The translations under genes and the position numbers were made by a program. Source: TPA_inf: Saccharomyces (Eukaryota). From it: 64,000 nt of DNA. The stretch lies in assembly GCA_000146045.2 (NCBI GenBank), contig BK006945.2, forward strand, positions 640,001 to 704,000. The letters are read 5' to 3'. Shown here in pieces: positions 23,284 through 62,900 of the stretch (the stretch's first letter is position 1; the number at the start of each line of letters is the position of its first letter). The notes beneath the pieces were generated by a model. The model saw only the letters and a list, made by a program, of their open reading frames with translations, made no database searches and was not told the DNA's origin.

Positions 23284-25002
23284 TTACATCATACCTGGCA
23301 TTCCTGGCATACCACCTGGCATACCACCAGCGCCAGCAGCTGCTGGTGGTTCTGGGGCATCAACAATAGCAACTTCGGTAGTAGCTAATAGTGAGGCAAC
23401 ACCAGAAGCATCAACTAAACCGGATCTAACCACTTTAAATGGATCGATGATACCAGTGGCTAACATGTCGGTGTATTCTGACTTAGAGGCATCGTAACCC
23501 TTGGCAAAATCATCACCATATTCATCAATCAATTTGCCGATGATAACTGAACCTTCTTCACCAGCGTTTTCAATGATCTGCTTGGCTGGTCTTGTAATGG
23601 CCTTTCTTATGATATCGACACCCAATTTTTGATCGAAATTGTCGACAACAACTTCATCCAAAACTCTAGATGCCTTCACTAAGGCAGTACCACCACCTGG
23701 CAAGATACCTTCCTCAACTGCAGCTCTGGTAGCGTTCAAAGCATCATCGTAACGGTCCTTCTTTTCACCAACTTCAACTTCAGATGCACCACCGACCCTG
23801 ATGACAGCAACACCCCCGGACAATTTGGCCAAACGCTCTTGCAGTTTCTCCTTCTCATATGAATTTGTGGTGGTAATGTCGATGGAGCCTTTGATTTGTT
23901 CAATTCTCTCTTGAATAGCTTCCTTTGGACCACTACCGTTCAGGATAACGGTGTCTTCCTTAGTAACGGTAATAGAGTCACAAGAACCCAAGTTTTCTAT
24001 GGTACATTGTTCTGGTTTCAAATCCAACTCCTCAGTAAAAACAGTACCGCCCGTCAAGACTGCAATATCACCAATTGTATTCTTTCTATTATCACCGAAA
24101 CCAGGCGCCTTCACAGCACAAACCTTAACTTGACCCCTCAACTTGTTCAAAATACAAGCCGCAAGAGCTTCACCGTCAACATCTTCAGCAATGATCAACA
24201 AAGGTCTTCTGCTTTGATTGGAAATTTCCAAAGCTGGCAAGATATCTTGAATGGAAGAAATTTTCTTTTCACTCAACAATAGCAATGGCTTTTCAAATTC
24301 CACCTTGCTCGACTTTGGATCAGTGATGAAGTATGGAGAAATAAAACCACGATCAAACCTCATACCTTCAGTAACCTCAAGTTCATCTTCCAATGTTCTA
24401 CCTTCTCTGATAGTGATGACACCTTCTTTTCCAACCTTTTCCATAGCTGAAGCTAGTAACTTACCAACATGAGAGTCCCCATTGGCAGAAATGGTTGCTA
24501 CTTGAGCAATTTCCTCAGATGTGGTAATTTCTTTCTTGTTGGCGCTCAAAAATTCAATCACTTTTTCAACTGCAACTTGAGAACCCCTTCTCAAATCCAT
24601 AGGGTTACAACCAGCGGCGACATTTTTGACGGATTCTGTGAAGATGGCTCTACCTAAGACAGTAGCAGAAGTAGTACCGTCACCAGCAGCCTCATTGGTT
24701 TTGGAGGCAACTTCTTGTAGTAACTTGGCACCCATATTTTCAAACTTGTCCTTCAACACAATAGATTTGGCAACTGTAACACCATCCTTAGTAATCTTTG
24801 GAGGACCGAAAGGCTGTTCGATTAAAACGTTTCTACCCTTTGGACCCAAAGTAGCAGCAACCGCTTCAGCTAAAGTTTCGACACCCTTAAGAAGGGAGGC
24901 TCTTCCTTCTACACCGAATTTCAATTCTTTATGAGAGGAGTAAGCACGACGCAATAAAGGCCTTAAAGTAGCGCGACTACGAACAACGGATGATCTCAAC
25001 AT
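23284..25002 (-). CDS. HSP60: Mitochondrial chaperonin Hsp60 (572 aa; the true start is MLRSSVV, not the upstream in-frame ATG of the 599-aa track ORF)
   Basis: GroEL-family sequence with an N-terminal presequence [23 protein letters not shown] and the C-terminal GGM repeat [14 protein letters not shown]. 572 aa. Confidence 0.95.
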
Positions 25003-25199
25003 TTTGAAAACTTTTTTGCTTATGATGTTTTCTCGTGGGAATTTTCTTATATTATTCAAGGAAGTGCATGAAGACGCAACCACGACCTTACATAATGAAT
25101 GTAAAACTTAGTCTCCTTCAATATATATACATGAATGTCCGTCTGGATTCTGCTCCGGGCAAAACGAAGCAAAATTAAAGTCACCCTCCCCATTTGGTT

Positions 25200-25212
25200 T
25201 TCTGGAAAATTC
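25200..25212. promoter_or_regulatory. Heat-shock element TTCtgGAAaaTTC (three alternating nGAAn units), about 200 bp upstream of the HSP60 ATG
   Basis: A perfect 3-unit inverted nGAAn array at 25200-25212 in the HSP60 5' flank. Confidence 0.65.
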
Positions 25213-25843
25213 CACGAGGTCCGTATATGATGACATATACAGATGGGCGGCTATAAAGTAAGTTTCCAGAGGTAATACCAGGCAATAAACAGCTTCAATT
25301 GCTCGTAACACCATTGTATACCTACAAAAACAGTGGAATAGGGATGAGACATAACTGGCTGGAATTTCAACTGTACTTCTTTGCACAACTAGTCTTGGCG
25401 TTCTACTTGATCATTGCGCGAATGGATGCACTCGCAATAATTCCCAATAGTATAACAGGAGGAACATTTGGATGCATTAGGTATATTATTCATCTTCTTT
25501 ATCATCAAAATTTTCTCTTCCTTTATGTTACTATGTTGCTTTCTTTTAATCTATGTTTTTTTCCCTTTCAGTTGCCACCGCTTTTCTGCAAGATTCATAG
25601 TTAGATTTGCAAATCAAGGTGTTTTCGGGCCTTGTTAAAGCCTTCGCAGGCGAAGAAGAAAGGGAACGTAAGCTGCGTGAGCCGAATCTATTTATACAAA
25701 AACAATCAAAAAAGTATAACTACAGCATAAACTGTTGTATATACGTGTTGCAAAATAGGAAAGAAAAGAAGAGTAAAAGGACTCTTGATATTATCTCGAA
25801 AAAACCACAAATAGTGTAAGATTTAAACAGTAAGCCAAAAGAG

Positions 25844-27907
25844 ATGACTTTGAAACCTTCAAAGAGACGTAAGGGCAGGTCTCGCCATTCCAGGAAGAAG
25901 CAAATAACGTCAGCGATACTGACTGAGGAAGGAATAATGATCAAGGCAAAACCATCAAGTCCTTACACATACGCAAATAGAATGGCAGATAAACGAAGTC
26001 GCAGCAGCATTGACAACATCAGTAGAACTAGCTTTCAAAGCAACATCAGTAGAACTAGCTTTCAAAGCAACAGTGATAACAACAGTATATTTGAAACGGC
26101 TTCACTAATTAGCTGTGTTACCTGTTTAAGCGATACTGATACAATAGACAGATCGGAAACATCGACAACGGATACAAGTAAAGATGATCTTTCTGCTAAT
26201 CCAAAACTTCATTATCCTTCGGTGAATGGTCAATTGCCAGCAAACACCGTTATCCCCTATGGACGAATTCTGGATGCCAGATACATTGAAAAGGAACCTC
26301 TGCATTATTATGATGCCAATTCATCACCCAGTTCACCTTTAAGCAGCTCAATGAGTAACATTAGTGAAAAGTGTGATCTTGATGAATTAGAGTCTTCCCA
26401 AAAAAAAGAAAGGAAGGGCAACTCGCTATCGCGAGGAAGTAACAGTAGTAGTAGCCTCCTGACTTCCAGATCTCCTTTTACGAAACTAGTAGAGGTTATA
26501 TTTGCTAGGCCAAGACGGCATGACGTTGTACCCAAAAGGGTTTCATTGTATATTGACTATAAACCCCATTCATCTTCTCACTTAAAAGAAGAAGATGACT
26601 TGGTTGAGGAGATTTTAAAGAGAAGCTACAAAAACACTAGAAGGAACAAATCCATATTTGTGATCATTAATCCGTTTGGTGGTAAAGGTAAGGCGAAAAA
26701 ACTGTTTATGACAAAGGCAAAGCCGTTACTATTAGCAAGTCGGTGTTCCATAGAAGTGGTTTATACAAAATACCCTGGTCATGCTATAGAGATCGCGCGG
26801 GAAATGGATATTGACAAATATGACACTATTGCTTGCGCTTCGGGAGATGGCATTCCTCATGAGGTGATCAATGGGTTATACCAAAGGCCTGATCATGTCA
26901 AAGCATTCAACAATATCGCCATTACAGAAATTCCATGCGGATCAGGTAACGCAATGAGCGTATCCTGCCACTGGACAAACAATCCTTCGTACTCAACTTT
27001 ATGCTTAATTAAATCGATAGAGACTAGAATTGATTTGATGTGTTGTTCGCAGCCTTCTTATGCAAGAGAGCACCCAAAGTTATCATTTTTAAGTCAAACA
27101 TATGGTCTCATTGCAGAAACTGACATAAACACTGAATTTATTAGATGGATGGGACCTGCAAGGTTTGAATTGGGTGTAGCCTTCAATATCATACAAAAAA
27201 AAAAATATCCTTGTGAGATATATGTAAAGTATGCTGCCAAATCAAAAAACGAGTTAAAAAATCATTACCTGGAACACAAAAATAAAGGGTCGTTAGAATT
27301 CCAGCATATTACTATGAACAAAGATAACGAGGATTGTGATAATTACAATTACGAAAATGAATACGAAACCGAAAACGAAGATGAAGATGAAGATGCGGAT
27401 GCGGATGACGAAGACTCCCACTTGATATCTCGTGATCTGGCAGATTCTAGTGCTGATCAAATTAAAGAGGAAGATTTCAAAATAAAATATCCATTAGATG
27501 AAGGTATCCCTAGTGACTGGGAAAGATTGGATCCTAATATTTCGAACAACCTAGGTATCTTCTATACGGGTAAAATGCCATATGTGGCTGCTGACACTAA
27601 ATTCTTTCCGGCAGCGCTTCCTTCAGATGGTACAATGGATATGGTTATCACCGATGCAAGAACCTCGTTGACGAGGATGGCACCAATCCTGCTGGGACTA
27701 GATAAGGGTTCCCATGTTTTACAACCGGAAGTCTTACACTCTAAAATTTTGGCATACAAGATAATACCAAAGCTAGGGAACGGCTTGTTCTCTGTCGATG
27801 GCGAGAAATTTCCTCTAGAGCCCCTTCAAGTCGAAATTATGCCACGCTTATGCAAGACGTTACTGAGAAATGGCCGTTATGTGGACACAGATTTCGATTC
27901 TATGTGA
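25844..27907 (+). CDS. LCB5: Lcb5, minor sphingoid long-chain-base kinase (687 aa)
   Basis: DAG-kinase-like catalytic domain ([13 protein letters not shown]..., [16 protein letters not shown]) with a long Ser/Asn-rich N-terminal region. 687 aa. Confidence 0.9.
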
Positions 27908-28243
27908 CACTTTACTTAATCTTTTCCTTCGTACTGAACAATTAATCAAAAACTAGAATATGTCATTTCTATTTCTTCTATATTTTTTTTACGTTGTTGT
28001 TGTTTTTGTTGTTGTTTGATAACTTTATACACTCCATACTTCTTTATAAAAAGTTTTAATACCATTCTTTAATACAACCATGTTTAGTGAGTACTAGCTC
28101 CTACACATCAGATCGTCAAGTACATTATGATTATGATTATTATTAATATTATCAGTACAATTATTATGTGCTGGTAGTTCACTAAAAAATATGACGCACA
28201 CAAAGAGTTCTCCTTATGCCCTATAGAACTGAAATATTAGGTG

Positions 28244-59495: not shown

Positions 59496-59998
59496 ATATG
59501 CGTATACTTATTAATGTTAACTTATTATGTTACTTTTTATTTCCTCAATGGACAAAATTCAATTGATAATACAATGTTTCTTTTGTGCTGTAACTTTTGA
59601 AGTACTGAAAACAAGGGTAAAAGAAATAAACGCTTATACCCGTGAACATTTTGAACCTATTAGATGTGATCTCAATATGTATTGCGCTGAAGCAGTAGAA
59701 GTTGTTAAAGATCCGCTAGTTTTTCATAATTTTCGGCCAGAATAACTGCTTACCCGTATTTATTTGCAAACACGCTACTTAGTCTTTTGGAGAGGACTTT
59801 ATACAGGAAAGAAAGAGTTTTATTGATTTTAAAAACAATATAAATGAAAGAAAAAAATGTGTTTTAGATTAGGCTTATAAGATATGACCCATATCATAAT
59901 TAAAAAAAGCGATTTAGTTGTTCTTTTAAAAAAAAAGAGAAAAAAAAAAAAAAAAAAAAAAGGAATGAGTTTGTACATACTATTATATTAATGTAGTA

Positions 59999-62900
59999 TC
60001 ACGTTAAAAAGCCGTAGTCATCATTAATCGTCCAAAAGTCTTCTACCGGACCAGATGTCATCATGTTATCCCAGTTAGAACGCTTTTTCCTGATGTCTGC
60101 GTTAGTTACTGTAGGAATAACATTGTCGAAATGCAGATTTGCGCTAGTGTTTGCTTCCACCTGTGTTTTAGGTCCATTCTTCTCTGTTTCGTCAAGATTA
60201 TATTGTACACCTTCCTGATTGGACATCATGAACAAATTTCTGTTATACGAAGGGTCATTCTGCGTCTGTTGAAAATTATTAGCGGTTACATTGTTTTCAG
60301 AACACATATTTTGTTGTTGATGTTGTTGCTGCTGTTTGTCCATGGACAGAGATGAAGGCTCTTGACTCTGGGGAAATATTGTTTGTAGTATGGACTTGCT
60401 ATTCAAAGCATCTAGAACGGAGTTATTGGTCCAGGTGGAAATATTGTTGATCATGTCATGAGCACCGTTGCTGAAAAGTATATCGCCCGAAGAAGAGCCA
60501 TTTCGAGCTTGTTTGACACTGACCGGAATTGAATTGCTAGTAAATGACGCTGGTATCGAGGAGATAATATTATTGCCATAATCTGCTCTTAGGGGTGATG
60601 TACTGAAATTTGATTCTTCGACATCTCTTAATTGCTTATTTTCACTTGTATGGTTAGAGAATATTGCAGATTGTAGAGGATTACTGTTGATCATACCATT
60701 GTTTAATTGATTCGTAAAATTGCTTTCTGAGAATCTTTGTGGAGAAGTAATATGTTGTTGTGGCTGCTCCCGCTGTTGTTGCGGCAGTGGTCGTGATACA
60801 TGCTGTTGCGGTAGCATATTGGAAGTTTGAGGATATGGAGTTGGGCTTTGCGTCATCGCTATTGGAATCGGATCCGAATGCGAAGAGGCTGTAGATATGC
60901 TAGAAGATTTTGAAGGACTTCTATTGGTCATAGTATCGGTGTTCAGGGACGATAGATACGCTTGTAAATTGTGCTGAGCTAGTTGCTGTTGTAGAAAGGC
61001 CTGCTGTTGAAATACTTGCCAATCAAACTCTGTTTGGTTGGTTGGTTTCTTGACGATATATTGGTCTTGAATAGGCCTTTCTACATCATTTTCCATAGTT
61101 ACGTTGTTGTTACGAACATACTGGCTGTTGTTGCCATTATTGCAGCTGTTGTTGGTAGTGCTTCTGCTATTACTTTCATTATCATTATTATTAACATTAT
61201 TATTATTATTACTATTATTATTATTATTGTTATTATTATTATTATTATCATTATTATTGTTGTGATTATTGTTGTGTTCTCTGTTGACGCTGCTGATGGT
61301 CATACCATTGTTATCATTGTTTACATTGATTTTCAGGTTTTTTTCTTGGGAAGAAGGAAACGATAATGTCGACGATGATGACGAAGAAGAAGATGATGAC
61401 GAAGAAGATGTTGTATAAGACATTGAAGAATTTGAAATACGTGACCTGTCATCCATTTTGGTTAATAGGTGAGCTAAACTTTTGGGTACAGAGGTCTTTT
61501 CTAAAACACCTTGCTTCTTCTTGAATTTCTCTTGTTCAGCCAAATCCACTTGTGAATTTTCCACAAAACCGGCGTGCTCTTCAGCTTGTCCTTTACCAAA
61601 TATTCTAGCCACAGCAGGCGGCATACCGCCATTATGAGATATATTTTTATCGTTTGAATTGGATAGATTAGCTGCATTTGCGGAGTTAGAATCATGAAGA
61701 GTATCCCCAGATGAAATTGCCTTATTGGCCTCATCATTGATGTTCTTGGGTTCAGTACGCTTGGCGACACTACTAGCCATGAAAATTAACTCAGAAGAGT
61801 CTGGACCACATCTTTCAATCAAATTACCTACCGTGGCATTCATTAACTGATCGAAAGTATCTCTAAAGGTTCTTGCAAAATTAGACCTTTCTGTCATAAC
61901 ATATAAACAAACGGAGCAAGCTCTCAAATCATCCATCGTCGAAAAGAGACTTGCACTGATTAAAGGTCTAGTATGCTTCGAAGCATCGCCTAATTTCTTC
62001 CTCCTTTGATCGTCAAAATTCCTGGCTAACCACATACAGTAGATTAAAGTTACGCCAGCTACAAAAACCGTATGCACTGCTGGTGTAGAATGACCATTAA
62101 GCGTTTTTTGATGGAATATCTTGTATAACTGACAAATTTGACCCGCAGCAGCTTGACATTCTCTAAATAGTCTATCCTCCGGGGCGAAAAATTCCAAATA
62201 TGGTTGTATAAGCAATCGCACTGATCTATAGTAATAAAGTTTTAGTGTCTCGTTTTCGAAATTTTTCACGTCAAGAGTGGAATAACTTTTTCTCCAAACT
62301 TCCAAATCTTCAAAAAATTTTCGTACTAGGGGCAATTGATCAATGGATTGCTTCACTGACCTGGAATCGTTTTTCAATAGCTGTAAAGTCTCTACAAATT
62401 GAGATTCAATTCTTCGCAGCTTTAGAGACTGATTGATGAATTGCACACCATGGTCATTGGTTGATGGAGCCGCCGCATGCACACCTTTTGTATAAAAAGA
62501 GTCGTTATTGAAAAGAGGTAAATTTATTTCCGACTCCTTGATTGTATAAGGTTTCCCCACAGCAACACAAATCATTCTTTCCAACAGGTAAACACACCAA
62601 AATAGTCGCAGTTTCTTATTTGCAAATGGATCATTAGGATACCATTGATTTAGATGAAGTTTCTTCTTGGATATGCCCATGACATCCTTGATTATGTCAT
62701 ATAGTATCAGAGAATCTCTATCAGTCCTAATAATGTAAAGGACAAGCAATGTCAACAGTTCTATTTGCTGAACATAATTCAAATGTAGACCACACTTAGT
62801 GATGTGACGGATAGCGGTGGAGAAATATCGGTGAGGTGGAAACCCCTTGTACTTACCTGTGGTCATCAGTAAGTAGGCGCTGATGCTGAAGACAAGCCAC

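Follow-up and report, generated by a model that had tools for sequence, protein, structure and literature searches.

The LCB5 locus and its tandem duplication

The window (the whole stretch of DNA analysed, 64,000 nucleotides in length) contains an open reading frame whose product is identical at every residue to the sphinganine kinase LCB5 of Saccharomyces cerevisiae S288C and which includes a Pfam DAGK_cat domain (PF00781; residues 271-400, E = 1.1e-26). LCB5 encodes a sphingoid long-chain-base kinase and is the minor, dispensable paralog of LCB4. The gene is placed between an HSP60-type chaperonin (Cpn60) gene and a YPT6-type GTPase (Ras/Arf-family) gene, in HSP60-LCB5-YPT6 synteny. The chromosomal coordinates of YLR260W (chrXII 665844-667907) equal those of the reading frame at an offset of 640000, and the window is therefore understood as S288C chromosome XII 640001-704000. 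The assignment to LCB5 made in an earlier note, which was based on the letters of this DNA, is thus borne out by the exact protein match, by the catalytic domain and by the neighbouring genes. The features relevant to the analysis are collected in Table 1.

Table 1. Features of LCB5 around the repeat (window coordinates) and DNA sequences carrying each copy state
Feature	Position	Strand	Description and basis
LCB5 open reading frame	25844..27907	+	687 aa; open reading frame list, DAGK_cat domain, exact match to S288C Lcb5
Codons S54 and S55	26003..26008	+	documented in vivo phosphosites, just upstream of the repeat and outside it
Copy 1 of the 27-bp unit, CAACATCAGTAGAACTAGCTTTCAAAG	26014..26040	+	last base of D57, codons N58-Q65, two bases of S66
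Copy 2 of the 27-bp unit	26041..26067	+	100% identical to copy 1; encodes the N67-S75 block
CAACA	26068..26072	+	third occurrence of the 5-bp microhomology that opens each unit; Tandem Repeats Finder (2.2 copies), lag-27 matches
Cysteine motif F83-D97	26090..26134	+	best-conserved motif of the N-terminal loop; alignments
Two-copy sequences			window, L005, L007, L008, L016-L019
One-copy sequences			L001-L004, L006, L011-L015, metagenome contigs L020 and L021

The perfect 27-bp duplication described in the earlier note is recovered at the same positions both by reading of the sequence and by Tandem Repeats Finder, which reports 26014-26072 with a period of 27, 2.2 copies, 100% matches, 0 indels and a score of 118. 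The two units are contiguous, head to tail and free of any spacer, and identity at a lag of 27 extends over 32 consecutive bases (first-copy coordinates 26014-26045), that is, 5 bp (CAACA) past the end of copy 2. A run of this type has a chance expectation of ∼1e-11 in 64 kb, as estimated from the base composition of the window with a match probability of 0.266 and any lag from 4 to 500 allowed, and the LCB5 repeat is the sole perfect tandem duplication with a unit >12 bp in the whole 64-kb window. Translation of LCB5 agrees with the in-frame status and the encoded peptide as previously noted: codon D57 ends at position 26014 and the protein reads D57-[N58 ISRTSFQ S66]-[N67 ISRTSFQ S75]-N76, with NISRTSFQS and ISRTSFQSN as equally valid registers of the duplicated peptide. 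The possibility of some other coding feature, or an antisense one, at this site was considered and rejected, for both strands there hold nothing meaningful, only chance reading frames of 32-36 aa. A DNA hairpin as driver of slippage was likewise rejected, the single-stranded fold of the repeat being unremarkable and no better than that of shuffled sequences (z = -0.93).

Copy number within S. cerevisiae

Two perfect copies of the unit are present in 8 and a single copy in 12 of the 20 S. cerevisiae DNA sequences compared (18 S. cerevisiae loci and 2 metagenome contigs), counts that do not represent allele frequencies since protein sequence served to retrieve the loci and public assemblies over-represent laboratory derivatives of S288C. 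The two contigs are those returned by a metagenome scan for the upstream junction, and each has one copy. In every two-copy allele, the second unit repeats the first exactly and both match those of the window; in every one-copy allele, exactly 27 bp, hence one unit, are cleanly missing, and which of the two units that is has no defined answer. A three-copy allele was found neither in the 20 DNA sequences nor among ∼30 distinct protein sequences.

The proteins lead to the same picture, with 4 distinct sequences having two copies and >20 having one. The representative of the 90%-identity cluster that holds the window protein is 678 aa long, nine residues shorter than the window protein. Among the 15 of 126 cluster members listed, 4 distinct sequences are of the two-copy form (687 or 689 aa) and 11 are of the one-copy form (678 aa, 680 aa or a truncated annotation), the latter including the CEN.PK113-7D-type and Kyokai-7-type proteins. 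In a second cluster, comprised of truncated alleles, the region is covered by 13 members, all with one copy. Many contigs contain LCB5 alleles truncated by a frameshift, and loss-of-function alleles also segregate. The main prediction of the earlier note, that copy number differs between strains, is therefore substantiated by the occurrence of 1- and 2-copy alleles, and two silently diverged copies shared by all strains, the pattern by which it might have been contradicted, are not what the strains exhibit. Measured against the yeast ORF minisatellite (VNTR), the repeat has an in-frame unit of at least 10 bp (27 bp) that is strain-variable in copy number (1 or 2), and lacks a multi-unit array with many length alleles, given that 1- and 2-copy alleles are the only ones in the sample.

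The 27-bp indel is already catalogued, albeit without comment, as a difference between S288C and CEN.PK113-7D. Additional file 8 of Nijkamp et al. 2012 (PMC3364882) gives a deletion at chrXII 666045-666071 (YLR260W, ATCAGTAGAACTAGCTTTCAAAGCAAC, LCB5), corresponding to 26045-26071 of the window. The in-frame SWI1 69-bp deletion and SNF11 12-bp extension belong to the same catalogue and class of S288C versus CEN.PK113-7D indels (PMC3364882); the LCB5 indel is distinct from them in that the main text of that paper does not discuss it, and neither its polarity (S288C derived) nor its microhomology anatomy is stated there.

Ancestral state and sequence anatomy

Outside of S. cerevisiae, the unit is present once in each of the six other Saccharomyces sequences, namely S. 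mikatae, S. kudriavzevii, S. arboricola, S. uvarum, a uvarum/eubayanus-like protein (P0007) and S. pastorianus. A relative recovered from a Logan assembly (protein P0002; 92% protein identity and ∼13% DNA divergence over 5 kb) also has a single copy, and for this relative (L009) and S. mikatae (L010) the single unit is confirmed at the DNA level. The orthologues have one NISRTSFQS, which is NNSRTSFQS in the uvarum group; the full-length ones have 676-680 aa. The comparison with the paralog LCB4 proposed in the earlier note was performed as well: in the alignment, Lcb4 is devoid of any counterpart of the duplicated segment. Because the six other Saccharomyces sequences and the Logan-assembly relative have one copy, the single-copy form is ancestral and the duplication arose within S. 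cerevisiae. Judged from this distribution, the two-copy state is derived within S. cerevisiae and the S288C reference carries the derived allele.

The single-copy alleles of S. cerevisiae and the closest outgroup, the Logan-assembly relative, read GA-CAACA-TCAGTAGAACTAGCTTTCAAAG-CAACA-GTG. The unit is thus enclosed by two CAACA sequences, a 5-bp direct repeat with starts 27 bp apart; S. mikatae has only AACA at the corresponding site. Microhomology-mediated tandem duplications (MTDs) are defined by a microhomology of 4-25 nt at a spacing of 3-500 nt, with in-frame events favoured (Dan et al. 2021 PNAS, PMC8639346; Wei et al. 2026 bioRxiv 10.64898/2026.02.28.708716), and the CAACA pair (5 nt, 27 bp from start to start) fits this definition. 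In genes, it is the in-frame events that are tolerated. The same literature describes high rates of reversion to the single copy (PMC8639346; 10.64898/2026.02.28.708716). According to the preprint of Wei et al. 2026 (bioRxiv 10.64898/2026.02.28.708716), the MTD is the dominant route of tandem duplication across life and is dependent on Rad27 in S. cerevisiae. By itself, a 5-bp A/C-rich match at a distance of 27 bp is not rare.

Haplotype background of the two copy states

In an initial set of nine S. cerevisiae loci, copy number appeared perfectly linked with >10 flanking SNPs, as if on a single stable haplotype, a relationship that was broken by nine further loci. L012, with one copy, is the same as the two-copy window over 24344-26235 except for the indel. 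Two sub-haplotype pairs have rare markers in common: for L005 and L012 these are 27250T, 27847G and an insertion of GATGAC at 27391, and for L007 and L011 they are 25891T and 26673T, situated on opposite sides of the repeat; in both pairs the copy number differs. L016 and L017 have two copies on otherwise B-type flanks. Copy number is hence not tied to one haplotype, which implies that the region has recombined (or undergone gene conversion) or that the unit has been gained and lost repeatedly. The occurrence of both copy states on near-identical haplotypes (window/L012, L005/L012, L007/L011) is explained as well by recombination as by frequent collapse to the single copy. L011 differs from L007 at 25582, 25756 and 26164 as well as in the indel.

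The S. cerevisiae sequences differ from one another by 4-37 substitutions per 5 kb. At this level of divergence, 54 bp are expected to be identical, and the identity of the units therefore says little about their age. The earlier note had read perfect identity as a sign of very recent duplication, but such identity carries little information, given that it is expected for any duplication younger than the species. Ongoing slippage, the other possibility raised in it, is not demonstrated by a sample having just two states and no three-copy allele.

Protein context and phosphorylation

The AlphaFold2 model of Lcb5, built with 39 homologues, has a mean pLDDT of 66 and a pTM of 0.66. Confident beta elements are predicted for residues 22-33 and 136-147, together with the kinase body, whereas the pLDDT is <50 for residues 38-120 and drops to 25-30 for residues 51-80. 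The low-pLDDT segment is situated between the two confident elements, and the repeat therefore lies in a predicted-disordered loop and not in a free tail. The disordered N-terminal region envisaged in the earlier note is consequently retained as regards the predicted lack of structure (residues 51-80), but it is understood as a loop between two beta elements.

Two motifs that flank this loop are conserved across the Saccharomycetaceae in the alignments, and one copy of the repeat inserts 9 residues at a distance of 7 residues upstream of the cysteine motif F83-D97. In that motif, C94 is invariant and C91 is present in at least 90% of the 39 homologues, so that Lcb5 has the Cys-x-x-Cys in the N-terminal loop (C91 and C94) expected of an Lcb4-type anchor. 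The motif aligns with the Lcb4 segment SLSLLSCLSCLDD (SCLSCL), the cysteines of which we take to be those palmitoylated in Lcb4. Lcb5 resembles the N-terminal region of Lcb4 in keeping the S-C-x-x-C-L motif (C91, C94) and, ahead of it, the AILTEEG-type strand, which by sequence makes it a candidate for similar anchoring, and differs from it in that Lcb4 has no counterpart of NISRTSFQS and a far shorter loop between the motifs. As conveyed by the papers citing Kihara et al. [quoted passage not shown]

The length of the loop between the flanking motifs varies widely among genera, and it is much shorter in Lcb4; loop length as such is therefore apparently tolerated. The unit and the residues around it hardly vary in sequence or length within Saccharomyces, and Zygosaccharomyces, Naumovozyma, Nakaseomyces and Vanderwaltozyma likewise have a [ST]-S-[FL]-x-S core upstream of FETASL. 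Because of this near-invariance and the recurrence of the core elsewhere, the unit may be a short motif under constraint and not simply neutral spacing. Viewed in this way, the duplicated piece may be a small functional motif whose doubling could matter.

The documented phosphosites are located outside of the repeat. In the portions of the published supplements covered here, Kanshin 2015 gives the peptide SRSS(ph)IDNISR with site 55 at a localisation probability of 0.99, and Lanz 2019 gives pS54, pS55 (758 spectral matches), pS112 and pS201. S54 and S55 precede the duplicated block by 3-4 residues and are not themselves duplicated. In Table 1 of Roelants 2017, Lcb5 is a candidate substrate of Fpk1 through RSS55ID and RCS302IE (motif R-X-S-Hpo-D/E). 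RSS55ID, a true match to the consensus, is upstream of the repeat, and the duplicated unit itself does not match, for its R-T-S-F-Q has Q instead of D/E at position +2.

The phosphoproteome check suggested in the earlier note, for sites in SRTSFQSN, returned none within the portions of the supplements covered. Those of Kanshin 2015 and Lanz 2019 have S54, S55, S112 and S201 only and no phosphosite inside the repeat, with S60 scoring 0 in the abundant SRSS(p)IDNISR peptide. Peptides containing FQSN are absent from the covered portions of the Kanshin 2015, Lanz 2019, PTMeXchange 2026 and Leutert 2022 supplements; within these portions, PTMeXchange 2026 has LCB5 in motif and GO tables only and Leutert 2022 has nothing for LCB5. 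The idea that copy number modulates phospho-regulation of the region, also advanced in the earlier note, thus goes unsupported: S54 and S55 lie upstream in single copy, and S60 scored 0. The tryptic peptide that follows downstream (33 residues, two cysteines) is a poor target for mass spectrometry.

Discussion

Based on the evidence combined here, the LCB5 repeat is best understood as a segregating in-frame length polymorphism that is derived in S288C, bracketed by microhomology and most likely of little or no consequence. We assign to this explanation a probability of about 0.78. In the sequence of events proposed, an ancestral 27-bp segment bracketed by CAACA would have undergone tandem duplication within the S. 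cerevisiae lineage, with the second unit arising through misalignment of the two CAACA copies or slippage of replication from one to the other. We infer microhomology-mediated slippage as the origin from the microhomology only, that is, from the anatomy of the site. The 27+27+5 bp direct repeat so created could collapse to one copy via similar slippage or unequal exchange, and either such collapse or ordinary recombination would put both states on closely related haplotypes. For the protein, the effect would be a predicted-disordered loop that is longer by NISRTSFQS, between pS54/S55 and the cysteine motif.

The two-copy state is no artefact of assembly or sequencing of the reference, an explanation whose probability is practically nil: the identical two-copy sequence is found in seven other independent S. 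cerevisiae assemblies, the two-copy assemblies span four distinct Lcb5 protein variants (the window's own counted) and the difference between S288C and CEN.PK was recorded as real in an independent study (Nijkamp et al. 2012, PMC3364882). Another possibility is that the repeat is an unstable, reversible element, with slippage having switched it repeatedly from one copy to two and back. The uncoupling of copy number from a single haplotype, as seen for window/L012, L005/L012, L007/L011, L016 and L017, would be accommodated by such switching, and so would the high reversion rates published for microhomology-mediated duplications. However, frequent slippage on a two-unit array should yield some three-copy alleles, of which there are none in the sample, and the differences of L011 from L007 (25582/25756, 26164 and the indel) have the appearance of a recombination or conversion tract. 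S. cerevisiae genomes are mosaic, moreover, and four-gamete violations are expected from recombination alone; the unremarkable single-stranded fold also offers no assistance to the idea. On balance we regard recurrent switching as unlikely. One origin followed by recombination is favoured over recurrent collapse on the sequences at hand, because of the tract-like differences of L011 and the absence of a three-copy allele from the sample.

The doubled NISRTSFQS might, in another scenario, be a functional regulatory variant that alters the phosphorylation, membrane targeting or stability of Lcb5. The route proposed for such an effect is through extra Ser/Thr acceptors or a changed spacing between pS54/pS55 and the cysteine motif. 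The position of the unit lends some plausibility to this scenario, 3 residues after a documented phosphosite in a motif of Fpk1 consensus and 7 residues before a conserved cysteine motif, as do its near-invariance in Saccharomyces, the partial conservation of its core in other genera and its R-T-S-F, which resembles the R-x-S-hydrophobic core of basophilic kinases. The phosphorylation data point the other way, in that the portions of the supplements covered have no phosphorylation within the repeat (S60 scored 0), RTSFQ has no acidic residue at +2, as the Fpk1 motif R-X-S-Hpo-D/E would demand, and the documented sites are unduplicated. The loop, furthermore, tolerates very large differences in length from yeast to yeast, and a much shorter one suffices for Lcb4; the one- and two-copy alleles are each common, with loss-of-function alleles segregating alongside them; and no phenotype or QTL is tied to the indel in the literature searched. 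We consider a regulatory variant quite improbable. The most far-reaching version, in which the nonapeptide, next to pS55 and just ahead of the cysteine anchor, is a short, conserved linear motif ([ST]-S-[FL]-x-S), the two-copy allele measurably changes membrane targeting or phospho-control of Lcb5 and the locus is reversibly toggled through its microhomology, is judged more improbable still. If true, signalling by long-chain-base phosphates would set laboratory strains of S288C descent apart from CEN.PK, sake and many wild strains. The preferred explanation of the indel as near-neutral, most likely with no or very little consequence, is one we infer, and it is made likely by the status of LCB5 as the minor, dispensable paralog of LCB4 and by the segregating frameshift alleles.

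Comparison with known types of repeat helps to place the LCB5 polymorphism. Its features in common with MTDs are the head-to-tail duplication of a segment, the CAACA-bracketed single-copy form, the preservation of the reading frame and the presence of the duplicated as well as the collapsed state in natural isolates. The single-copy state is furthermore available for inspection, in the six other Saccharomyces sequences, the Logan-assembly relative and 12 of the 20 S. cerevisiae DNA sequences. Most published MTDs, by contrast, come from S. pombe and were either subclonal or loss-of-function events under selection, whereas the LCB5 duplication is a common and apparently harmless allele that is fixed in the S. 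cerevisiae reference strain. The concept of intragenic tandem repeats in yeast ORFs was reportedly set out by Verstrepen et al. in 2005. With the repeats of this kind in FLO1, FLO11 and other cell-wall genes, LCB5 has in common an in-frame unit that is a multiple of 3 and a copy number variable between strains. It is distinct from them in having two units and two alleles instead of a long multi-allelic array, and in that its product is a cytosolic/peripheral-membrane enzyme and not a cell-surface protein, with no phenotype attached.

In the literature searched, a query for the LCB5 tandem repeat gave only unrelated uses of the string. The LCB5 repeat, of little importance overall, is a clean textbook case of an in-frame tandem duplication bracketed by microhomology, derived in the reference and still segregating. 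Were the allele to affect Lcb5 regulation, it would constitute a background difference in sphingolipid signalling between common laboratory strains; nothing in the current analysis suggests that it does. There is also a practical side. Residue numbering of Lcb5 past position 66 is shifted by 9 between the S288C-type protein and that of CEN.PK, of Kyokai-7-type strains and of many wild strains, and the tryptic peptide TSFQSNISR is specific to two-copy strains. The numbering shift and the strain-specific peptide are both relevant for the mapping of Lcb5 phosphosites and cysteines across strains.

Frameshift alleles of LCB5

Natural S. cerevisiae alleles of LCB5 carry a −1 frameshift at an A11 homopolymer within the reading frame, with one A missing at position 27204 in three of the fetched loci (L013-L015) and an altered product end in three of the distinct Lcb5 protein sequences (P0009, P0135, P0136). 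Illumina-derived Logan contigs are among the sources of these alleles, and for P0136 19 contigs were read. At the same run, a further three protein sequences (P0139, P0141, P0145) have apparently undergone a +1 frameshift, as judged from a product that terminates in ...QKKKISL at the stop codon. Frameshifts at the A11 run, −1 and +1 alike, cost the kinase its C-terminal third, so LCB5 seems to have loss-of-function alleles segregating in nature. The 27-bp unit is present as a single copy in all LCB5 frameshift alleles seen.

Repeat features in the window
Feature	Position	Context
CCTGGCATACCA, perfect 12-bp tandem repeat, 2.2 copies	23303-23328	minus-strand HSP60-like ORF (23284-25083)
A11 homopolymer	27195-27205	LCB5 ORF, codons ~451-455 (CAA AAA AAA AAA TAT)
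GAAGAT/GATGCG hexanucleotide repeat region	27377-27407 (near 27391)	codes for Asp/Glu-rich insert of Lcb5
GTT/TTG microsatellite	27993-28017	directly past LCB5 stop, on YPT6 side
A-rich run, 34 bases	59928-59961	simple repeat
(ATT)31 microsatellite	61178-61270	simple repeat
GATGATGACGAAGAAGAA acidic-codon repeats	61362-61410	simple repeat

Core motif and further repeats

Alignment of Lcb5 residues 58-97 with homologues reveals a [ST]-S-[FL]-x-S core in the duplicated unit, and in the homologues from Zygosaccharomyces, Naumovozyma, Nakaseomyces and Vanderwaltozyma the same core is placed a few residues upstream of a strongly conserved cysteine motif. The core may represent a short linear motif.

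Beside the 27-bp duplication, the acidic tract constitutes a second in-frame length polymorphism of LCB5: an extra GATGAC in loci L005 and L012 adds two residues, giving proteins of 689 and 680 amino acids, respectively. The microsatellite 3' of the gene also varies in length by strain, with differences of 3 to 11 bp in L005, L007, L008, L018 and L019.

In the HSP60-like ORF, the CCTGGCATACCA repeat encodes the Gly-Met-Pro C-terminal tail of the chaperonin. It is of the GGM type that is usual for Hsp60/GroEL proteins.
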